Source of the DNA: Phoronis australis
Taxonomy: Eukaryota; Animalia; Phoronida
Length of the DNA: 64,000 bases
Direction of reading: 5' to 3'
NCBI GenBank assembly: GCA_002633005.1
Contig: NMRA01000723.1
Coordinates: forward strand, 116,675-180,674
Part shown: positions 7,082 through 43,502 of the stretch, piece after piece
Numbering within the stretch: the stretch's first letter is position 1
Layout of the letters: every line of letters begins with the position of its first letter
Notes under the pieces: model-generated
Seen by the model: the letters and a program-made list of their open reading frames with translations, nothing else
The model's database searches: none
What the model was told of the DNA's origin: nothing
Program-made: the position numbers and the translations under genes

Positions 7082-8539
7082 GTAATTCTGATGTTTTTGC
7101 AACATACATGCAATTTTACCTGATAACCTAAAGACCCTCAGTCCAAAGTTCGTCAGACATTTTTGGTGTACAATGTCACTGACTACTCTATTGACTGTTC
7201 TGTCAGTCAATGGTCATGTAGAAACATCCACCACCAGGGGCCGGGCAGAACAGGACTGTGCCAGTGCAGTGGGACAGCACTGCCAGCCGTAGTAGGCAGT
7301 AGCCTACTGGGTACTGTACCGTCAGTCGGCGTCAGTGGCAATGTGTCACTTACAGATGACTAATCAAACTAGCCAGCTAGCTACCTGTGTATGACTGAAT
7401 GTCAAAACACAGCTAGGAAACAATTATTAGTCAATTAGGGAATTAAGGAAAAACTAGCTCTTTCAATTGACCTATCGCCAGGATTATGACTGATGGCTTA
7501 ACTGACCAATCAGAATGCAACATTCCTGATGCACCTTCGTCTGTTTTCCAATTAAGCCGCCATTTTACCCGACAAACAAGGCATTGTCGGTAAAGCTTAT
7601 TTTCGTTTATAGCTCAAGAAACTGCGCGATAAGAATGTGAAATGGTGAAACGGTGTTGTTATGGCGAGTGTAATTTTGACTGCCGTTATACAGCTCGAGA
7701 AGAATATCCCATCACTTTTTGGGCATTGCCTAAGCCGAAAAAAGATGTCAACTGTGTAAATGATGAATCAAACTGTGTGGATGGCCACACGAGCAGCTAA
7801 ACTTAACATAGCAATGCTGCTGGATTACTTGAAGGTTAAACACAAATATATTTGTTCCAAGATACGTACATTTCAGTTTGGTGGCTACCTGATTTTGATT
7901 CCAGAGTTGCACTCATCTGGGCGCCATACTAGTCCTGTACAAACCATGGTCAGAAAATTTGATATTGACAAAAATTTGATGGTTTAAATTTTGCTATCAT
8001 GATTGTTTTTGCCAATGAAATAACAAAACAAGTTGCATACTTAACTAAAATATATCTAAAATTAGTTGAAACTGACTACGTGTATTTTATATGTAAAGCA
8101 AAATTGAAAAAGATGCAATGCAGAAATAAAACTTGTATTTGTTCCATACTACAAGATATATTTATTAAGTATACAAAGACAGTTGTTTTCCTTTGAGGAT
8201 GGCGAAGTCTATCACAACTCAGTCTAAGTGAAATCAATCCTTTGTCCTTGTGAAGGGAATACAACAGTGCTAGTGATGATGAATGAAATTCATGTAATTA
8301 TTCTAGAAGTAGATATAAAATCACTGAAATAGTAGAATAGTATTTGATAATTTACAAAGTGGAATTTTATGTTTGCTAAAACAGATTTTCTATTTTTGAA
8401 AACAGAAAATCAGGGTCTCTATACTATATTGTGTCCAAAACTAAAAAATTCCGTGGAAAAAGGCTTCAATTTGAGTGGGAACCTTGATGACTTTTGGTAC
8501 ACAGGCATTGATACACGTACTTGTTGTCTGTGTTTTCAG

Positions 8540-8701
8540 GAGGTGGTTGTGAATGTTGCGGGTAAGCCATTGAGATTTGAGTCGGGACGCTTGGCAAGGT
8601 TTGCAGATGGCAGTGCTGTTGTTACACTGGGAGAAACATCTGTCTTGACTACTGCGGTCAGTAGAGCCAGAGGACTGACTACTTCTTTCTTACCTCTGAC
8701 G
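8540..8701 (+). CDS. PNPT1: PNPT1 coding exon 2
   Basis: ttttcag|GAG...ACG|gtatgt, 162 nt; 'SGRLARFADGSAVV...TAVS...FLPLT' is the start of the first RNase PH domain. Confidence 0.95.
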
Positions 8702-10162
8702 GTATGTGTTGAATTGAGGGTACTTACATTCTCAGCTGCGTATGTGCTATATGTTGGTCTGCCTTTGTATGTAATGTTCACAGAATACTCTGAATGTTGA
8801 GTACCAAGAAATGACTTTACTGGGAACGGATGGTGTTTTTATGGCCCCACATATATTTATGTGGGGCCATATTGCTGTCATCACTGTTTGAATGTCCGCG
8901 GCTGGTTGCACAAAGCAGTCCTAAATAGTGGGTCAACTATACATTCCTTAACTTTTCACCTCATTTGTGTACTTGTGCAAACACTGATTGAACTTTCTAA
9001 TACCATTTTCCTTTCATTACTATGTCCATTTTAGCTTTGATACACACCAAGAATAAACTCTATGTTGAATTGATTTCTCAATATTAATGAAAGTAAACAC
9101 AAACTTAGTCTTTAACTTAAAGATATTCCATGAAAAGATCTCTATATTTTCATGCAATACTCAAATTTCACATTGTTGTCACTGTAGAAAACTTGGCAAC
9201 AGTTTCCTTAAATAACCTCTGTCTTTGCCCAGCTGAGTTGAAAAAACACTGTTACCTGCATAGCTAATTGTGTTTTCTGAGTTGAAGTTAACTGGCATTT
9301 TTCGTAGTGGCTATTCCATTAGAATCGGTATGGAAAGGCACTTGAAATAACAAATTGTGGTGGTTGTGTTCATAAAAAATCAATAATCACTAGTTGTTGT
9401 TCTAACTTGTAAAGTATATTAATTATTGTTTGTAGTGGTGTTGTTATCCATAAATGTGATGCAGTGGGTATTATCACCTGTTCAGTGCAACAAAGTACGT
9501 ACACACCAAACCAAATTTTCAAGTGTTATTTACAATGAATTTGTTTTGCGCTACAAAACATTTCCCTACTGATAACTCTAAATGAGCCATACTGGTTGCG
9601 ATTTGAATAGCACAAGCAATAAACGAGTTTGATCACTACCGCTGGCTGATAGTGATTTCCCTAATTGAAAACTTTTCGGTAATAGTCGGTTATAGAGAGA
9701 ACCAGTTTGGTGCCCGTTATTTAGTGGTGAGATTTGGTTCTCAAAATGTGGGCACATTATATCCGACCATGACCCACTTTTCTGCATTGTCACACAATAC
9801 ATTGGTTTTGCTTGCACCTATAGTGTCCTAAGCTGAGTTCTTGTCTTGATGATCTAATAACTTTTGTAGTTTATGAATGGGAATTGAGATATGTTCTTGT
9901 AAAGACGAGGATAATTGATGTCCGTATTTTGGAATGTTCTGTATCATTAGTCATGGCAACACTTTCCTTTACACAATCATCTTACATTGTACAACTTAAA
10001 TACATTATTGAAATAACTATGAAATGTTTGACTGTTTTTATACATCTAAAAGCCTAATGTTTTAGTTAAATCTGTGCTGCCTGCTGTTCTCAATCTCCCA
10101 ACAAGTGAGAGTTCCCTGTCCAGGTCACTATACTGAATACCACCCTCACTTACTCCTTCCAG

Positions 10163-10607
10163 GTAGACTACCGACAGAAGTCGGCAGCTGCAGGTCGGAT
10201 TCCCACCAACTACCTGCGCCGTGAACTCGGCCCGTCTGACAGAGAGATTCTTGCTTCACGTCTCATTGACAGATCGGTCCGCCCCCTGTTTCCACTTGGA
10301 TATCTTTGTGACACCCAAATTGTTTCTAATCTCTTGGCTATAGACGGCATTAACGATCCCGATGTTATCAGTATCAATGCGGCATCTGCTGCTCTTGCTG
10401 TGTCCGACATACCTTGGAACGGGCCCATAGGAGCTGTGCGTATTGGCTGTATAGACAACGAAATGGTGATGAATCCAACTCGTAAGCAACTGATGCACAG
10501 CACACTGAATCTTGTTGTGACATCAACTGCTCAGAACCTGGTAGTTATGTTGGAAGCGTCGGCAGAAAACATGCTGCAGCAGGATTTTATGAAGGCCATA
10601 AAACTGG
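10163..10607 (+). CDS. PNPT1: PNPT1 coding exon 3
   Basis: ccttccag|GTA...G|gtaatg, 445 nt; '[21 protein letters not shown]...[13 protein letters not shown]...[25 protein letters not shown]'. Confidence 0.96.
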
Positions 10608-10920
10608 GTAATGTTTCTGTTTTATTGAACCTACAGCATTGTTAAGTTTCCAGTGTTTTATTCTATGGAAGATGACTAGATATTGCAGGATGATGCCTGG
10701 TGTTACATATGGACTGGTTATCTTTTGGCCATTTCGCTTATCCTTGATTCACCTCCAAATGAACCATGTGTACAGTAACCATAGCAACAAATTCTGTCTA
10801 TACTTATTGCCATCTTCACTTGCACTTGTATTGGCCCGTAAAAACGTTGCACTCAAAACAGTTGATGTAGAGAACTTAAAACTAGTAATGTGTTGATGGT
10901 TTTGTGGTTGTAGCTTACTG

Positions 10921-11387
10921 CAAGGCTTGGAATTTTCCGCGGAAACGCGGATTTCCACTTTTTTCAAATGTTCTGTCCGCGCATTTTATTATATTTCCGC
11001 GTAAATCGGATTTGATATAAAATTTCCGCGGCAAATTCCTTTCTTACCGCGGTGTGCCGATGACGTTCACCTCGAAAAGCGGAAGTTACTCTTTATGTTT
11101 CGGAGGAATGTAAATTGTCAACATTGCCGGGACAACTGGTATAGCGTGGTGAGATTTTCAATGGCGTTTCGTGTGATTGTAAACAGCGGTGACAAATACT
11201 ACGGCTCTGCAGAGTGGACGGACGAGCTAAAAAGACGCAGACGCATGCTACTGATGGTGGTAACGTTTTTTAAGTCCCGATTTTTGTCGGCGAAAGGTTT
11301 ACATCGACTATTTCAAGGCTGGGTAGCGCGCATGTTTTGGGCCGTAAAAGTTTCTGCGTTTTTTGTCATTGGTCATTCCAAGCCCTG
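10921..11387. mobile_element. hAT-like MITE (467 bp) with 6-bp TSD in PNPT1 intron 3
   Basis: TIR CAAGGCTTGGAAT / ATTCCAAGCCCTG (12/13); TTACTG directly on both sides (10915-10920, 11388-11393); subterminal CCGCG repeats. Confidence 0.8.
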
Positions 11388-11706
11388 TTACTGTTAATGT
11401 TGTCTGTTTTATAAATAATTTCTATGCATAAAGAAAATATTGATAGTAAAAATAATAGACGTGTGCCTGTAAACGCATGTTTTGGTGAGCATTTGCCACT
11501 GTCTCTGACTGTTTTTATTTTTGACGGCATAACTTCAGACCTGTTTATAATGGTAGTTTTTCATTAATTGGGTTGTTCAGAAAAATGAGACTGGTGTGCT
11601 GTAACAAATTGTTTCCAGTTTCCAGGTAGAAATGTAACATAGTTACTATCACTTGGTAAACTGTTAACTGTACAAGTGTCTCACTCGGTTTATTGTTGCA
11701 TTCTAG

Positions 11707-13298
11707 GTGTAAAAGAAAGCCAAGCAATTGTTCGAGGTATTGTAGACTTACAAAAACTTGTAGGCAAGGAGAAAAGAGAATTCAGCCCTGTGAGTGAACT
11801 ATCCCAGGTCATGTTGGAAGCCTGTTCTAGTCTGGCACAGACACGTCTCATGGAGGTGTTCAGTGACTATACGCATGACAAGTTCTCACGAGATAATGCG
11901 GTAAAAAACGTTATGGAGGACGTTGTTGACAAACTCAAAGGCAGTTTCCCAGAGACAGAACCGAGTGTACTCATTGAGTGCTTTAATAAGGTGTCCAAAG
12001 GTGTGTTTCGTGATTTAGTGTTAGATGGTGAGAAACGATGCGATGGGCGTACCAGCAACATGCTGAGGCCTATCTCATGTCAAGTGGACTTGTATCCCCC
12101 ATTACATGGGTCGGCATTGTTCCAAAGAGGACAAACTCAGGTTCTTTGTACTGTGGCATTTGATTCACTTGAGTCGGCTGCAAAGTCTGACTCGGTGTCA
12201 GTATTGACTGGAGGTATTAAAGAGAAGAACTTCATGCTGCACTATGAATTCCCACCCTACGCGACCAATGAATTAGGTCGGCCTGGAATGATGGGAAGGA
12301 GGGAATTGGGCCATGGTGCATTGGCCGAGAAATCGCTTCGCCCCGTAGTTCCTGACAAGTTTCCCTTCACGATTAGACTAACGGCAGAGGTCCTCGAGTC
12401 CAATGGTTCATCATCTATGGCGTCAGCATGTGCCGGAAGCTTGGCATTGATGGACGCTGGAGTACCCATCTCAGATGCCGTGGCTGGAGTTGCCGTGGGT
12501 CTTGTAACACGTGTGGATGAAAATAATGATATAATTGAGTACAAGCTGCTCACTGATATCCTTGGTATTGAGGATTACATGGGGGATATGGACTTTAAGA
12601 TGGCTGGCACTAAACGAGGCATTACTTCATTGCAGGCCGACATGAAGTTACGCGGACTTCCTCTTGCCATTGTCATGGAGTCAGTGCAAAAAGCGACGGA
12701 GGGAAAATCGGAAGTTCTACAGATTATGAATCAAACAATTCAGCGAAATCGGGAAAAGCCCAAACCAAATCAACCGATCACTGAGAAGCTTAGTATTCTG
12801 GTAGCCAAACGATCGAAATTTGTCGGTGTTGGTGGCTACAATTTAAAGCGTCTCACAGCGGAAACTGGTGTGATGGTCTCTGTCGTTGATGACACAACTT
12901 TTGAAATTTTTGCCCCTAATCCGGCGGCAATGGATGAAGCAAAAGAGAAGGTTGAACAACTCTTAGCTGAGGAAAGGGAACCTGAACTAGAGTTTGGTGC
13001 TATTTATCAAGGAAAAATTGTTGAGATTCGTGACAGTGGTGTCATGGTGGAACTGCATCCCCTAATCAAACCAGCTTTAGTACACAATTCACAGTTGGAT
13101 CAGAGAAAAGTGAGTCACCCAAGTGTGCTCAGTTTTGAAGTTGGTCAAGAAATATCAGTCAAATACTTTGGTCGAGATCCAGTCACGGGGCAGCTGAGGT
13201 TGTCTCGGAAGGTCTTGTATACGCCATCTAGTGGCGTTGTGAGGACTCTTGGACAAACAAAGTCATCAAGGACTAGCGAGAATGGAAGTGAGGTGTGA
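11707..13298 (+). CDS. PNPT1: PNPT1 coding exon 4 (helical domain, second RNase PH, KH and S1 domains; stop codon)
   Basis: ttctag|GT completes Gly (phase 1); motifs [54 protein letters not shown] 'VGVGGYNLK' and S1; total CDS 2304 nt = 767 aa. Confidence 0.97.
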
Positions 13299-18922: not shown

Positions 18923-20246
18923 ATCCCAATGCCTAACGACAGTCGAGTTTTTGCTCAACCTTCAGAACTCATTATTGGGAGATTGTGAACAAAGAAACCA
19001 GGTTATGACGACCACCCCATGTGCAAGCTGTCATCGACAAGCAACGGTTCAAGTTGTGATTGACATGCGTTCATGACGACTTAGAAGAGCAGCAAAAAGG
19101 TTTTAAAAGAGCTAAAAATCCCCCCGATGACTCTCCAGGAGGAATAGTCTGCCGAGGTCAGCTGCTTATTTCTATACCATCAGAAACAGACTAGACTTGG
19201 CACTCTAGAACCCAGTAGCGAGTCGATGACAGCTTTAACACGTTACTGGACTTGGAATTAGCGTGAAATGAACTCAGAATCAACAACAACACGTGACGTG
19301 AGCAGGGTGATGTCAACATTTAACTACAAAAAGTAGAAAATTCACAACTTAAGTCATAGAATGTGCTCCAAACTTTGGCAACATTGCTCCAGATCAAAAA
19401 CCCACCCCGTTGTGTACATAGTAATATAAGCAAGCTTTGCCATATGAGACCCTCCCAGAGTGCGAAAACGCAGTAGTGTGTTGTTGGCAAGCTTGCATCC
19501 AGCAAGACACAACCTAAATAATACTGGCCAATCAAAACGAGGAAGTAACCCCACTTGCAACAACACAAGCCAGAGAAAAAGCCTCCCCAACATCAACAAA
19601 TACACAGCCACGTTTACAGCAAGAAGCCCACTCTGGGAACACTGAAGACTTTTGGTGTGTTTCTACCTTCACACGTATGTGTACAAGTACAGTAGAAGAA
19701 CCGACTTACAATATGAGCAGCCAGCCAGGAATCCTTTGAGGACTTGGGGTGGAGAGACTAGTACTAAACATAATAAAAAATTGCCTTTTGCCTAAAATTG
19801 CCTAATGAAAATGGAGAAATTGCCATCTACATGTACAAGTAATTTTGCTTTAACCTCCCAATGCGTCACAATGCAACACTTGCGGCGAGATATCTGCCGC
19901 GTACACATCTGACAAGTGATTGTGATAGATTATACAGAATGAGGCGGTAGCATATAACAAACACAGACGAGGTTAAATAGGAAATGTCCACAAAATGAAA
20001 ACTAGAAAATGCCCTCTAAAGTACATGAAACAAAAAACTTGCGTGAAGTTGTGAAAATTTACAAAACCCTAGGATTGCTATATACCTAAGAAAGATACAC
20101 AACACTCAGAAAAGCACAACAATCCACCGTATTTGTGGATGGTGTTCAATCCCCACAATAACTGATCAGCATTTAGTCAATTTCCCAAAGCAGCATTGGC
20201 AAAGGTTGGAGGTCAGCCTTGATGATTGCACAGGCGTTCGGAGACT

Positions 20247-20312
20247 CTAATCTGATTGGCTGGACGCCGTCTCCGATGCATCAGCCCGACAAATTGGGCA
20301 AGTTCTATTGGT
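20247..20312 (-). CDS. RNF38: RNF38/RNF44-family E3 ligase, last coding exon
   Basis: tttttcag|ACC; TNRTCPICRADASETASSQSD* completes the RING-H2 and matches the family C-terminus 'NRTCPICRADAS'. Confidence 0.95.
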   Translation of the reverse strand, partial: TNRTCPICRADASETASSQSD

Positions 20313-21143: not shown

Positions 21144-21244
21144 AAGAAGTGCAGCAGTAAACCAGGGTATGGAGGTGGCGGTGGCACCGAGCGCCATCTG
21201 TTGGTCCGGTTTGGTGTGCGGCGCACAAAACGAGAGTATGGGCC
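21144..21244 (-). CDS. RNF38: RNF38/44 exon
   Basis: ttacag|GGC...TT|gtaagt, 101 nt; GPYSRFVRRTPNRTNRWRSVPPPPPYPGLLLHF(L); phase fits both neighbours. Confidence 0.9.
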
Positions 21245-21367: not shown

Positions 21368-21517
21368 ATAGACATCATGTGGCTGCGGGTGAACGGCTGG
21401 CTCTTGAAGAAGGACTGGTGCCGACGGGTTGATTGTGGGGCCTCTGTGGATTGCACTAGGAATGTGGTAGGTACCCGGACGGCGATCACCGATCACATGG
21501 ATGTCATTCTCCTGGTG
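21368..21517 (-). CDS. RNF38: RNF38/44 exon
   Basis: ccctcag|CAC...TAT|gtgagt, 150 nt, phase 0-0; HQENDIHVIGDRR...EPAVHPQPHDVY (alternative in-frame AG 6 nt downstream). Confidence 0.85.
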
Positions 21518-21868: not shown

Positions 21869-22168
21869 ATGATGATGGTGACCCTGCAAGTGTTGTGTCG
21901 TTGGCACAAAATGGGTCGTATGTAGTGGGTTGGGGTGATGCTGCAGATGAGGGGGCATGTGTACCGGCTGCATGTGCTGTGGCAGGTGCTGGGCCATAGG
22001 CAGGCCGCAGGCGGGGATGTGCTGGATACTGCAGGCTGGGAACTGTACGGTGCACCCTGGGATGGTCCAGGTGGGCTGCGCCATGTGGCCCGTGGTGGGC
22101 AAGTGGTGGGCAGCGGTGCACACTGGGATGGCATAAGGCGCCATCGTGACCGGCGTAGAAACAGGAAC
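21869..22168 (-). CDS. RNF38: RNF38/44 Pro/His-rich exon
   Basis: ttcacag|GTT...CAT|gtaagt, 300 nt; 'IPVCTAAHHLP...IPGCTVQFPACSIQHIPAC', the repeated PxC motifs typical of RNF38/44. Confidence 0.92.
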
Positions 22169-22991: not shown

Positions 22992-23178
22992 CTGTGTCAT
23001 GTCAATAATGAAGGGGTGGTGGTGAGGTGCCTGATGAGGCAGGACTGCGGGGTGAATTTGTTGCTGAGGCATGGCTGCCTGTGGCTGGCTCATAGAGGGT
23101 GGTTGGAAGGCCCGCCGCTCTGGGGACTCAGACTGACGGAGAGTGTTCCGGTCTCGGGCACGGCGACGAGTGGTAGGG
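22992..23178 (-). CDS. RNF38: RNF38/44 exon (common acceptor for alternative upstream exons)
   Basis: ttttccag|C...CAG|gtgtgt, 187 nt; PTTRRRARDRNTLRQSESPERRAF...IIDMTQ; requires a phase-2 donor. Confidence 0.9.
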
Positions 23179-23551
23179 CTGGAAAAGAAAAAGAAATTCA
23201 TATAGCACAGGTTGAAAGCTAAATTCTGGATTGTCTTCTTAAATAAAAATAATGAGGAAAAGGCCAATAAAAGCAAAGAAGTCCAAAAGCCTAGATGAAA
23301 TAGGTTTTTGCACAGTGCTAGAGAGGAAACTAGAGGCGCATGAATTCAACACGTAAAATGATAATAGTAACACATCAGTTTGGATTTGTTAGCAAGTCAG
23401 AAAATATGTGGCTGCTGTTCTTGGCACTGCAGTACAAACATTAATTTTGACAGTAGACTGACACAAGTAGTAACTGTACAGCAATGAACACAGCTGTTAC
23501 TAAATGAATATACATCTAGGGAACGCAAGCTCACAACTAAATACACTGATC

Positions 23552-24968
23552 CTACCAGGCCGCTTGCAACTGACGACGGACACTGTTGAATACATCCTTA
23601 ATGGTCGCGATGAAGTTCCGCAGCATGTGGCGTGCATTCAACGATATGCCAATGTTGATAGCCTGACTACGCAACTGTTCCGCCATATGTGTGTCGACGA
23701 CACCATGCTGCACAACCGAACAAACAACAGATAAGGCCTGCTGGATGAACAGACGCTGGAGTTCAATTAGACCCGTCATATGACCACTGAGTAACGAGAG
23801 AGTGGCATCTTCAACGGTTTGCCCATGCCAGCGGCTGAGAGAGGCAAGCAGGGACCTTGTGTGGTCAAACGATGGGTTGAAGAGAACTTCTTGATACACC
23901 CATAGGAATGACTCAAAATAGAACTGAGAGACCAACTGCAAGAACAAGGGAGGAAGACTGTCATCTGCCAGAGGCATTAATGGAGGAGGCATCTGTGGCA
24001 ACAATGGGAATGGCATCGAAGCTATTGGAATCGATGGCAAGACTGGAAGAAACAGAGAGTGAGCATTCACAGTATTGGCTTGGATGCCATCCGACTGCAG
24101 GCGGTATAACGCTGCTGTGAATGTGCCTTCGGAGTGGCCACTGGAGTTCAATGGCGATGGCACAAAGCTGTCAAATCCAGCTCTTTGGTCATCGTAATAC
24201 TCCCTCAAATTTATTCTGTCACCTGTCGAACTACAGTCTGTATCCCGTGTGTGATTACTTTCATGCAAATGATGACTACTTGTGGAGGAGTTAGAACATC
24301 TACTTTCAGGAAAAGAGTCAGTATGTCCAACCATTGGGTACGCGCTGTGTTGGACAGACCCGCAGCCAGGTAGCGACACCATACCTTCTTGTCTATTACC
24401 AACAGGCGACATGTTGGGCAGTGTAGACCAACTTCTACATGTAGCCATATCTTCTTGTCTGTTTCCAGAAGATGACATGTTGGTGCCTTCAAACCAGAGA
24501 TTCTCCTTGCTGTGTCCGGACACATTTTCAATGTTATGTTGTCGGTACTCATCAACGGGATACCTTGATCCTAACAACGCTTCCTCATGATTGACACAGT
24601 CTGGTTGGCTACAGCCAAGTGAATGGTTATCCTTTACATACGATCCATCCATATTTACTTTCTTTCCACAATCAACAGAGGAGGATTGTTTGTTAAAACT
24701 TTCAGAAGACCCTGACTGAACATGTCCAAACTCAGCTAGACAATACTGCTCGTTTTCTTTATCACCTTGATCACCAATTTCATTTGGAACATTGTAGCAA
24801 TGAGCAAGTGAGTCACCAAACAGTGGAACATCTACAGAGCTGACTGAGCCAATCAACTGAGCATTGTGAGGCAAAAACGGCCCACAAAAACTATCCAATT
24901 TTTTCTGTTCAAAATTCTTAATGTTATTGCTATTGTAAGTGGTATCACCGTCAGAATCTTCACTGCGG

Positions 24969-25006
<38 letters not shown>

Positions 25007-26323
25007 GCTGTTGTCTTCATATTTACAGTCATTCCGATGACAATTATTGCCATTTCTGTTGCTCATCTTGTTGGCATGCAGTTCATCCATGCTGTCATTA
25101 TTGTGAAATGAATGGTTACTGAACTCATAAAATGCAGAACAAGGTGTCGTGTTTCTCACACAGCTGACTGGTGATTCTTTCACGGGGTGGCGTCTATCTC
25201 GACAGTTCACAATGGATGAATTACTACGACGTACGTTAAGAGGAGCAGCAACACCACTTAATGAGTAATACACTCGGTTGTGCTTTTCGCTGGCTGTCCG
25301 TGGACGAGAAGAACTGCCATTGAATTTGCGAAGCCGAGGACACAATCCATGCCCAGCCAAAGTTTCTTCTTTGGCAAGTTCCCACTTGGTAGCGGACTCA
25401 GGAAGCATGACCCTGAGCTTTTTGTTATTAGCTTCCAGAGCATTCTGAGTGTGTCTAGGCAAGATCTTTTTCTTCAGTTTATCGATTTGTTTCAAACGAG
25501 CACAGCCATTGACGAGAGCACCGCATGATGAACCTGGACCATCTGTCCACTCAGATCCATAGAAACAACACATGTCACAGTCTGGTGGTTTGGACTTCGT
25601 TCTCTTTGTCGTGTCGAGTCGAAGCAGTGATAGCCCGTTGGCCAAAAATTTCATCTTTTGAAAATTGATTTTGAAATCACTGTTCATGGAAGTCCGAGAT
25701 GTGTGTTTTCTAGCGCTAGCAAGTCTCACCCGTTGTTTTCCCACATGTGACAATTTGTTTCGTGAATGCTGATCAACACTGTTACTGACCAGGTCACTGG
25801 AGAAACCGCAAGACTTCATGTTGGTTGACTGGCGATGATTATTGAACAAGTAATACCGACGTTGACTAGACAGCCAGTCGACAACTTTGGAACAATTACA
25901 AGCAGGAGAGTTCGCACAGGCACACAACTTGGAGCAACGGGTGTTATCAGAGGCTGCGATGCATGTTTCTACACCCACTTTCTCATTTCCATTGGGTACT
26001 ACAGCTCCCTGGGATGGATAGAACGAGTGGCCACACTCACCATCAGACCTTGGCCGTTGATTAAACGGCTTCGCCGAGACCAAGTTGGCAGAAGTCCACG
26101 ACAAAGGCTTGTCTTGTGGCTGGGTTGTCGGTTGCTTGAATATGTGCCCAGCATTTTGTGGAGTGGCTGCAGCCAAGGAACCACCTTGCTGTATTTGGCT
26201 TCTGGTAGACTGGATGGTATTACCTGGCCTCTTGCTAGACTTTATACGTAGGTCTATAAACTTTTTGTTTTTTACCTCAGCAAATGCCATAGAAATGTCA
26301 TGAATATTCTTTTCAACTGCCAT
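23552..26323 (-). CDS. 923-codon intronic ORF; probable giant alternative first coding exon of RNF38 (spliced form ends at 23556)
   Basis: 2.77 kb without a stop in otherwise stop-rich intron DNA; in-frame TAA two codons before the ATG; ends GCC TG|GTAGGA, a phase-2 donor matching the 23178 acceptor; no RT or transposase motifs seen. Confidence 0.8.
24968..25006. repeat. (AAC)13 in-frame poly-Asn tract within the 923-aa ORF
   Basis: GTT repeat on the plus strand encoding N13. Confidence 0.9.
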
Positions 26324-27301
26324 GCATTATGCAAAAAGCAAAATAGCAGTAAATGACAACTATATGTAGGTCCACTATAGACAGACCACACGATTTCTCA
26401 GTCAAAAGAAAATTAAATTGGTGATTGTTATGTCACGTTTCCTTGGAGAGGCTGGATAAACAATTAACTCACAGACATGAGTGTTGCATGATGCAACAAT
26501 CGAAAAAGAAAAACAATTAACGGCATGTACAAAATCCAACAAGTGAAATTCACCATCACGGAAATGAAACCATAAGTGCATAAAAACACAGATTATCATT
26601 TCTACAGAATTGTTCTAGACTACAGCCACATGACTTTAAATTGTTGTTGGTGCAAGAGTTCACAGCAGTTTTTCTCAGTGCTGAGTATTACAAATCTCAA
26701 AGCACATAGTGAAACTAGAGTTAAAAGAAAATTAAATACCAATTTCAAACAAAAGAACCATCAACAGTAGCCCAAGAACTGGGACGGACATAAAAAACAG
26801 GTATAGGGCAGTGCGGGGAGGAACCACAGACAAAAGATAACTAATCTGGTCTCTTACTGGTTGACAGAACAAAGCAATATTCGGACATTGCAAATGGTTG
26901 GAAATAGAGAAATGCTTTTCTGAACTACCACTACTACTACAAAACAACAAAATAAATCGATGTACTCCACACAACTTCATGTTCTGTGACACACTCGGAA
27001 TATCCAGACATCAAATAGAACAAAACAATGAACCATACTATTTCGACTCATTCCGGCACCATCCTTGAACAGTGCCACAGTGTACGGTAAGATCTTGCCA
27101 ATGAAGATACGTAGCATCACATTAATGCTTTATAATGCTCATGTTCTTTACCATAACTCCATCAGAAAATATTTTGAAAAACTCAAGCATTCACAATGTT
27201 AGAAGACCATGAAAAATGAAAAAAAGTTGATTTTGGCAATTATTTTTGTCCAAAATTAGTGAGATTTTAACATAACTATTAGTCATGACATAAACTCATA
27301 C

Positions 27302-27495
27302 CTCCTCCTATTACGAGGGGTATTGCACCTGTCGTTGGTCGGTCTACGCTGTTGCGGTTGAGACTGAGGCATTGTCCGCCTGTCGACGGCAGAAGAGTCC
27401 CAAGACTGAGACGGGGGTGGTGGACTGGCTGTCTGCGTCAGATCAACTTGGGCATTGTGATTCGTTTTCCTTCTCTTGCGAGTCGGGCTCTCAGT
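27302..27495 (-). CDS. RNF38: RNF38/44 conserved N-terminal exon (basic NLS-like motif)
   Basis: ttgcag|ACT...AG|gtatga, 194 nt; TESPTRKRRK...TASPPPP...RCNTPRNRR(S) matches RNF38 'SPSPKRQRL...SASPAPSPP...RCNTPARNRRSP'; AG+C=Ser joins the 23178 exon. Confidence 0.92.
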
Positions 27496-30400: not shown

Positions 30401-33400
30401 AGTCTGGTGCACATGCAGCAGCTTAATCCATTCCCATAATGCCATGCTTCTGGTTAATACCAGTATTCTGCACACACTGTCATAAACAGTGAACAAACAC
30501 AGACCCAGGTCAGAGTCAGAGCACAGAAACAAACTATCTATTGACATAACATTTAAAGCTGTGTTATAGTTCTGGGTGTTGGTGTTTATATGTATTCACT
30601 CATTCAGTCTCTTGCAAATTAAGTATAATCAGTGCTGAAAAGGGAAAAGTAAAATTTGTTCTTTTGGTGAACTACATCAATTGCATTTCTAATGACCCTA
30701 ATTTTCTGCAAGATCATTTCATAACTGTCAGTTCTCACTGGAAAAATCATACAGGTACCAGGTATTCTGAAGTTCACCATAGATTGTCAATCAAAATACC
30801 AGTGGCTAAGAGTTGAAAAAAACTATCCAAATCCCAACATCCATGTTGAGGGGCCTCATCCATTTATTACTTTTCCGGACTCAGTGCCTGAACTTCTCAC
30901 AAGAGAGGCCACAAGGGGCCCCAACAATGGGTTGAATGAAATGAGAGGAAGCAGAAAATCCCTGGCAGACTTGAAGCATTATCAGCTTTATAGTGTCAAT
31001 AGAGGTGAACAGGTCTCAGGTGAAGGCCATTAATGGAAAGGGTGTTTACAGTGGTAATCCCTCATCCTTTGATGTGGCAAGATGTATATAGGGTTGTGTG
31101 GGTCATGGGAAATGATTATGGTGGGAGGGAGGGCCAGGGAGATATTGGATGAGGGGTTGAGGAGTTGACACATCTCCCATTCTTCAAAGTGTCTGGATGT
31201 GTGGAGTGTTATGATGGTCATGGGAAATGAACATGTGGGGAGGGGGGAGGGAGCTACGGGAAGGTGGTGGTGGTTGTCTCCCATTATCGTCCGTCGGGAA
31301 CACTTCGGGTATATTCATAGTCTGAAATTTCTCCTCCAAGGTAAATATTATCTGCACTAGTGTGAATTTCAGCCATACAGACACAAATGCATAAAAAATG
31401 CTCACTTGCGAACTGTTAATACAATGGTATAAGTATATGTACACATAATCACTTATACAATAAAACCCAGGACATTCTGATGCTGTTACGAGATGGTGAC
31501 ACAAAAGGCACGACAGTCTTGCCAAAAGTGGGACAATATTGGAAACTATAGACGTGGTCAAAAAGAAAAACTGAAATAATCATTTCAAGTTTTCAGAAGC
31601 TTATTGCTTCAAACATTTAAATAGATGCACAGTGCTAACCATTGAAACAATAAAGTAAGATTTAATTTTATTGGTAAGTCTAACACATTTCCACAAAATC
31701 CCTGACTAAGTCGAAGGAATTTTACCGAATTCACAAAACGATGGAGCCAAACCCTCCTATAGACTCATAACTTTCATTCAAGATCAGTTTGATCTACATT
31801 CAGCTGCGATAACCATTGGTGCCTGGGAACCCAGACCTAGATTCCAAAAGGTCAGACAACCACTTCAGAAAAAAGGATGCATAAAAAACCCTCTCTAGTA
31901 AAACCACCATCCTGATAATGCAGAGCAAATGCATTAGCAATTTCAAAAGTAATTAAGACTAGCTCTGAGCTAGAACTTACACAGTAACCACAAATACAGA
32001 ATCAACAAGATTTCCTTTTGAAAGCTTGACTACAAGGTGGATTATAGGAGACAGAGCATGAGTAATCCCTTGGTGAGATGAGTTGCGTTTTTTTGTGCAT
32101 TCAGCTGACACATGGCAAGTTTGCAAAGTTGAGTTGCGAGTCAAGACACTTAAGTATCTGAGCTCACTGCGGTATCGCATCAATTTTGGATAAAAATAAT
32201 TGCTAAAACTGACCTTTTTACACTTTTTATGTAACTTTGTTGTGAATGCTCAAAATTTCTCAAAACATTGTCAGACTGTAGCTGTGGTACACATCATAGA
32301 CATGGAAGATTATTAACTTGGTGCTACGTATCTTTCATGATAAAAATGAGGAACTAACATTTCACTTGTCGGCCATGTTGAATCCTAAATTGGCAAGATT
32401 TTACCAGACATCCATTTCAAAAGTCTAAGTTGCTAAATGTCTCGCCAATACCTTGCGTGCGTTACGAACAAGATTCTAGCAAACTTGGCAAATTCACACA
32501 AGACCACACTAAATTATGCATGTGAAAGGAAATTGTGTACCTTTTTCATAATGAATAATGGGATAAAATTCTTTACTTCAATAAAACTATTGAGGATTTA
32601 TCACTGGATATGTTTGCGCATTTGCATTTTTGGAACACACCCGAACTTAGTACCATAACGTCAATGGAAGTGGGACAAAAATTTATTTACCGGTATCACA
32701 GAGAGTTAAGATTTTTGTATAATGGACCAACAATGAGGCCCACGTCTGATGCACTGCAAAAGACACCTCCTTTTTGTTTTACAGATGGTCCATTGGCATG
32801 CTGGCGTGGGTCGAAGTTCAAAGCCAGTTCAGTATTTGAAAAGCATTCGACCACTCCAGTACAGTGCAAACAAGTCAAGCAACAAGGACTCAGAACACCA
32901 TCTGTCAAAATTATCTGATAGAGGACCCACAAAACATTGTCGTAGTACTTTGAGGAGCTTAAGATTATTCAGTTCAAAGTTTTTTTAATTAAATATTCGT
33001 TCTCACCTTCTCCCACAAGTGGCAGAATTTTATACATTCAGTGTTTCTTTTTAAAGTTTAATTGCAACATTAACATTACATGTCACCTCAAGAACTGAAC
33101 AGTTACAGCAGTTCCTCAGTTATCTAGAACCCAATGTGGCCAACAAATGAAATTGTGTTTTGTCGAGTTACTCGTCAAAAGTAACGATTAACAACATTTT
33201 ATTCTTTTACAAGCATGGTCTGCAGAGTGTAGATGTCATAAAACAACATTTGTTAAAGTTTCCATTATCTGCACAGTGGTAATCAGCAATTGACAAATTA
33301 AAAAATTACCATTTTGACAATTATTTTGTGTGAAATATGTAAAGATTTTCCGTAAAACAAAAATGTAGTTTTCTGGTAAAGTTTTATAATTAAAGTGGCA

Positions 33401-43436: not shown

Positions 43437-43502
43437 GTTTTGGTTATTACGCAGGGAGTAATGTCTCCAGGGCTGGGACTGGTGGCAGCTGGCCTGCGCC
43501 AT
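43437..43502 (-). CDS. candidate alternative first coding exon of RNF38
   Basis: ggtATGG start, MAQASCHQSQPWRHYSLRNNQN, donor AAC|GTGAGT in phase 0, matching the 27495 acceptor; no homology support. Confidence 0.4.

Follow-up and report, generated by a model that had tools for sequence, protein, structure and literature searches.

An RNF38/44-type ligase gene with a giant intronic exon

The window analyzed here, a stretch of 64,000 nucleotides of the Phoronis australis genome (contig NMRA01000723.1), carries on its minus strand a gene for a RING-H2 protein. The RING-H2 exon alone matches Pfam zf-RING_2 (3.3e-09), and all eight zinc ligands are present in the spliced frame (C-x2-C...C-x-H-x2-H-x2-C...C-x2-C). 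Beside the RING lies the motif YEALL, which agrees with the YEELL-type consensus in the available part of PMC5764321, where a YEELL-type motif together with a RING-H2 is given as the signature of RNF38/44 (CTL) ligases. Judged by this sequence signature, the host gene encodes an RNF38/44 (CTL class) RING-H2 ligase. Its tail-to-tail neighbour is a PNPase (PNPT1-like) gene with few introns (8351-13298, plus strand), in which one 551-codon frame holds RNase PH, PNPase, KH and S1 domains. The features of the ligase gene are:

20245..20312, minus strand: last coding exon, with the end of the RING-H2 and the stop codon
20615..20924, minus strand: shared exon, carries the YEALL (YEELL-type) motif and the larger part of the RING-H2
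21144..21244, minus strand: shared exon, ends in PPPYPGLLLHFL
21368..21517, minus strand: shared exon
21869..22168, minus strand: shared exon, rich in Pro, His and Cys
22992..23178, minus strand: first shared RNF38/44 exon (PTTRRR...ESPERRAFQPP)
23179..23555, minus strand: phase-2 GT..AG intron of 377 nt between the domain exon and the shared exons, 4 and 8 junction reads
23556..23959, minus strand: conserved domain, predicted to form five helices (residues 790-922 or so in the long isoform)
23960..24076, minus strand: Pro-rich linker preceding the domain (25% Pro, residues 750-790)
24968..25014, minus strand: AAC microsatellite encoding a poly-Asn run
23556..26400, minus strand: giant alternative exon, probably a first exon, with an approximate 5' end; its first in-frame ATG is at 26323
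27302..27495, minus strand: upstream exon (TESPTRKRRK) of the isoforms without the domain, spliced straight to 23178 with the giant exon skipped
43437..43500, minus strand: 3' end of another 5' exon, with loose read ends and an unmapped far boundary

The giant exon contains a minus-strand frame of 924 codons from stop to stop (26326..23552), which sits within a 4123-nt intron of the ligase gene, between the exon at 27302-27495 and the six downstream coding exons. The peptide for which a helical domain had originally been proposed was correctly placed in the last ~133 codons of this frame. The abrupt change of composition described for it is also real: the fraction of LIVFMWY rises from 0.21 in residues 400-750, where S, N and H make up 0.33, to 0.42 in residues 790-924, and the Pro-rich linker lies ahead of the domain as stated. 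The ~780 residues upstream of the domain show no similarity to the linkers of its relatives. They include a small in-frame duplication at 24379-24483, consisting of two 39-nt copies that are 66 nt apart and 82% identical. A four-codon out-of-frame ATG frame (26327-26313, minus strand) overlaps the first ATG of the long isoform and could lower its translation. Thirteen SNPs are listed in the giant frame, nine non-synonymous and four synonymous, with no nonsense change and none within the domain; neither of the two patterns tested against chance is significant (p 0.30 and 0.13).

Expression was followed in three stranded RNA raw-read runs (X1, X2 and X3), chosen by species label and read to about a fifth of each run, and in a set of contigs (X4). 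The junction 23556-23178, which joins the giant exon to the first shared exon, is covered by 4 reads in X1, 8 in X2 and none in X3. The junction 27302-23178, which skips the giant exon, has 11, 6 and 15 reads, respectively, and one X4 contig. Inclusion versus skipping differs across the runs (Fisher p 0.003, pooled reads). Coding-strand reads span the whole giant frame in X1 (depth 6-17) and X2 (depth 2-14). In X3 the depth is 0-1.8, and the 3' 1.9 kb is uncovered there and in the X4 contigs; at 85% likeness the X3 depth is 0 across 23528-25411. The SNPs of X3 differ from those of X1 and X2, and therefore a genomic deletion in the X3 individual may explain the missing reads as an alternative to regulated non-expression.

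The final W codon and the stop of the giant frame straddle the splice donor, so that the spliced protein runs ...QLQAAC-PTTRRR. The RNA reads thus join the end of the domain in frame to the ligase exons, in agreement with its proposed placement directly before the shared RNF38 exons. The spliced long isoform is open for 1293 aa, 922 of them new and 371 shared, and ends in an intact RING-H2. The domain-less isoforms comprise 394-469 aa. Three other 5' exons (donors 43437, 44216 and 56288, minus strand) join the acceptor at 27495; of these, the 43437 exon alone contributes an in-frame Met, giving 469 aa instead of 394 aa. Since the X1 depth tapers at the 5' side of the giant exon near 26.4 kb (21 at 26251, 6 at 26360) and no joint into it from upstream is among the joints listed, the giant exon is likely an alternative first exon with its own promoter. 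Elsewhere in the introns, a repeat element at 27104-27270 draws many reads of other transcripts on both strands. A Pro/His-rich frame of 131 codons at 31184-31579 (minus strand), with an X4 contig over 31238-31404 and no Pfam match, is possibly a rare exon or 5' end.

Predicted fold and relatives of the domain

AlphaFold2, run with a 43-row alignment, predicts five helices for the domain (6-31, 33-49, 53-89, 94-110 and 113-138) with a pLDDT of 95.6 and a pTM of 0.85. The folded helical bundle of the original prediction is thereby borne out as a high-confidence model. Its helix-patterned character was confirmed as well, but amphipathicity is uneven: helix 1 has hydrophobic residues on all sides (mean 0.49, moment 0.12), and a strongly amphipathic character is confined to the last helix (moment 0.62).

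The domain had been called unassignable to a family and possibly new, and no significant match was found in Pfam, NCBIfam, PHROGs, the PDB or BFVD. In Pfam nothing reached the cut-off; the best row for the domain was DUF6473 (15.4 bits versus 27), and DUF1848 appeared below cut-off in 2 of 43 members (21.5 versus 30.5). NCBIfam and PHROGs gave nothing for the five members searched, a PDB sequence search gave nothing for the domain, the ESM Atlas no usable match, and Foldseek no PDB or BFVD match at E<=0.001. VIA-align returned no structure at Z>=8; its top scores were 7.6 (5j0l_A, rmsd 4.9, 123 aligned), 7.4 (5j0l_A, rmsd 4.9, 122 aligned) and 7.3 (5owv_A, rmsd 4.4, 118 aligned). Z scores up to 7.6 are at the level of generic bundles, and a novel fold does not follow from them. 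Neither the domain nor the isoform is described in the literature searched, which included few subscription papers and figures with unreadable logos. The domain does not appear in the available parts of PMC5764321, PMC12945521 and PMC12383540, and neither the seven text supplements of PMC5764321 nor the searched literature contain its core motif. The main text of PMC7441323, on spiralian-specific motifs, mentions neither RNF nor ubiquitin in the part available. We conclude that the exon encodes a new domain family, as far as the libraries searched are concerned, and gives a known E3 ligase a new isoform architecture.

Relatives were collected with phmmer, using a single-sequence query against 1.84 billion representatives, a search that distant relatives (e.g., in insects or vertebrates) could escape. 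It returned 45 matches at E<=0.001, 11 of them at <=1e-10, and 43 align over the full domain with about 27-38% identity. P0027 and P0031 were rejected as spurious repeat matches (8 and 14 short stretches). Without large gaps, 41 relatives and one cluster member align over the domain (P0045 and P0046 stand outside alignment A1); W24 is invariant, and F17, Y18 and Y26 of helix 1 are conserved. Word-index homologue searches yielded only relatives already known (1 and 9 matches), and another such search covered 2737-5000 aa only.

Two of the 30 clusters looked up carry species names, and both are nemerteans. In RefSeq, isoform X1 of Tubulanus polymorphus has 785 aa and that of Lineus longissimus 729 aa; both proteins contain the domain and the RING, joined at the same exon, and the records, XP_074643415.1 and XP_064630475.1, are both titled "uncharacterized protein isoform X1". 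The fused form therefore already exists, unannotated, in two RefSeq models. A spiralian distribution is suggested by these two named relatives being nemertean and by the depth of the tree. The remaining relatives are mostly recorded as stand-alone single ORFs. Of 41 related ORFs, counted without P0013 (fused) and P0046 (a fragment), 19 terminate with R or W near the domain or immediately behind it, compared with a background of 8.8% (nominal p 3e-10, the sequences not being independent). Such endings are expected where reading continues through a phase-2 donor into a stop, which argues that the position and phase of the donor are conserved in the relatives.

The genomic surroundings were inspected in 16 loci from a metagenome scan, which fall into three groups on the tree and are not 16 independent cases. 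An RNF38-type motif lies downstream on the same strand in 11 of them, namely all those with >900 bases downstream; the other five have at most 662 bases past the domain. In three loci (L001-L003) the domain exon is followed by the orthologue of the PxRRAFQPP exon, and the two join in frame. In eight others (L004, L006, L007, L009, L012, L013, L015 and L016) the first RNF38-type motif past the domain exon is YPGFLLHF, with the domain exon about 0.8-1.1 kb before the YPGFLLHF exon; L006 and L007 have a divergent RING-H2 (36-38% identity). This arrangement, read from sequence, suggests that the eight loci represent a shortened RNF38-like gene or paralogue in which domain and RING lie close together. 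The fetched loci yielded no TESPTRKRRK-type exon upstream, and a nested layout is therefore established for the window alone. The question of whether homologues accompany RNF38/44 genes is thus answered by conserved relatives that are fused to, or located just upstream of, RNF38/44-type exons; with a confident structure prediction and no clear match to a known domain in the libraries searched, the proposal of a new folded domain has held.

Most relatives share a second element, E-x3-W-x2-AY-x2-[IV] near the N-terminus, which is found in 33 of the 43 (34 with a looser pattern) and precedes the domain by 91-1382 residues. In the model of a short relative, whose bundle is predicted to fold like that of the window, this stretch is a helix with a pLDDT of 74-81, compared with about 50 for the linker. 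When the N-helix of a relative was modelled in complex with that relative's domain, the prediction, for which the alignment was not used and the partner fold is uncertain, scored 0.01. The motif is absent from the window: the ORF scores at best 0.9 and the minus-strand frames of 20000-64000 at best 7.1, versus 21-41 for true members. Two short linker motifs, C-x-GHDV-x-[FL] (5 of 43 relatives) and [LV][IL]-x2-[LI]-x2-W (6 of 43), belong to one clade (P0004, P0008, P0014, P0015, P0016, P0019, P0021, P0029 and P0034) and are missing from the window's frame.

The domain and the N-helix are under purifying selection. Among nine locus pairs, eight have a domain dN/dS of 0.03-0.23, and the ninth, with five differences, has 0.64; the linker gives 0.36-0.94 (nine pairs) and the N-helix 0-0.24 (the 8 pairs having differences). 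On the tree the window copy has a long branch (1.21) outside the largest clade, and because of this branch and the missing N-helix it may be under relaxed constraint.

Possible role of the long isoform

In some samples only, splicing joins the giant exon, which likely has a promoter of its own, in frame to the RNF38/44 exons and adds the predicted five-helix domain. We propose that promoter choice would make the long isoform tissue-, stage- or sex-specific, and that the domain would provide it with a structured docking site and with other targets or another location. A docking site is suggested because no folded domain is recognised in the ordinary isoforms apart from the YEELL-RING; to our knowledge, this applies to the RNF38/44/Murashka ligases in general. 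In most relatives the N-terminal W-x2-AY helix might work with the bundle across the disordered linker of 91-1382 residues, perhaps by docking on it, and the window copy would have lost this helix. Context and the established logic of E3 ligases lead us to give a probability of somewhat under 0.6 (about 0.58) to the reading that promoter choice produces a ligase form whose structured docking site alters its location or its set of partners or substrates.

Several other explanations have to be weighed. The domain might dimerise or oligomerise the long isoform, perhaps nucleating condensates together with the long disordered region, and bind no substrate. Helix 1 is long and hydrophobic on every face, with the invariant W24 and the conserved F17, Y18 and Y26, and dimerisation controls many RING ligases; a single chain is nevertheless predicted to fold on its own (pLDDT 95.6, pTM 0.85), and we consider self-association unlikely. 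Less likely still is an action in cis, in which the domain and the N-helix form a latch that damps or stabilises RING activity, or anchor the ligase to a membrane or organelle. The presence of the N-helix in 33 of 43 relatives, its purifying selection and the YPGFLLHF exon coming first after the domain exon in eight loci, which suggests a domain close to the RING, are consistent with a latch, but the isoform of the window has no N-helix. As to anchoring, the peak 19-residue hydropathy varies from 0.97 to 1.89 in four members, and a membrane-spanning helix is therefore not conserved.

A single, very long intronless ORF within an intron, with relatives mostly in the databases as stand-alone ORFs, could also be a nested, once-mobile gene of transposon or viral origin, whose own product is active and whose splicing to RNF38 is incidental. 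Against this speak the conserved position and phase of the donor in the relatives, the junction reads (4 and 8), which are of the same order as the exon depth at the 3' end of the giant exon (9.2 and 5.8) with an intron depth <1, and the absence of terminal repeats flanking the exon. Searches of prokaryote genomes, phage records, PHROGs, BFVD and viral contigs turned up no relative, the contig scans using one short pattern that can miss distant relatives. As a present mode of action the nested gene is largely refuted, and we regard it as improbable. That the frame is open by chance or reflects intronic read-through is hardly credible: although the SNPs of the upstream 780 codons look near neutral, a frame of this length has a probability of about 5e-23 at the local GC content, and for the domain this reading is refuted by 43 conserved relatives, purifying selection and precise splicing.

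The proposed promoter-controlled docking isoform can be extended to a wider picture, which we offer tentatively and with more doubt than belief. Here, an ancient helical family, present in no library searched, would as an optional intronic first exon make RNF38/44 a tissue- or germline-specific, substrate-targeted E3 ligase across several spiralian phyla. The module would be split, its N-terminal helix closing on the C-terminal bundle over a disordered loop of 90-1400 residues, and one worm lineage may have fixed a dedicated paralogue. The available part of PMC12383540 describes an action of Drosophila mura on Notch within the germline stem-cell niche, and by analogy with this action, and given the on/off expression observed here, we would guess at a germline role of the long isoform. 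For human RNF38, nuclear-transport and translation factors are named as ubiquitination targets (PMC12945521, available part).

An exon that adds a conserved domain is a direct handle on substrate choice, with two natural isoforms that carry the same RING and whose targets can be compared. The case also illustrates how Pfam can lack a conserved domain family, here because it is encoded by an optional exon and recorded mostly as stand-alone hypothetical ORFs.

Comparison with known bundles and CTL ligases

The FAT, vinculin-tail and alpha-catenin bundles, which bind amphipathic helices, resemble the domain in size and all-helical layout and provide an analogy for the docking of a helix. Against FAT/vinculin-tail bundles the model reaches Z 6.6 (3jbi_V, rmsd 6.1, 105 aligned) and 6.3 (6bz3_A, rmsd 5.6, 103 aligned). 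These scores, Z 5.3-6.6 with rmsd 3.5-7.6 overall, tie with those of unrelated and designed bundles, and at 4-10% identity no sequence link was found.

With RNF38, RNF44 and Murashka, as presented in the available parts of PMC5764321, PMC12945521 and PMC12383540, the long isoform has the YEALL motif and RING-H2 in common, and it shares six coding exons with the ordinary form. It differs from these ordinary ligases at the N-terminus, where an exon of 922 residues with a predicted folded domain replaces a short sequence. It has been proposed that the YEELL-RING module of CTL ligases stays constant and that their N-termini account for the divergence (PMC5764321, available part). The same source offers a precedent in RNF111/Arkadia versus RNF165/Ark2C, where an N-terminal targeting segment with SUMO-interaction motifs is set on the same RING module. 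Arkadia's addition, as described there, consists of linear motifs and is found in vertebrates, whereas that of the window is a predicted folded bundle on an optional exon.
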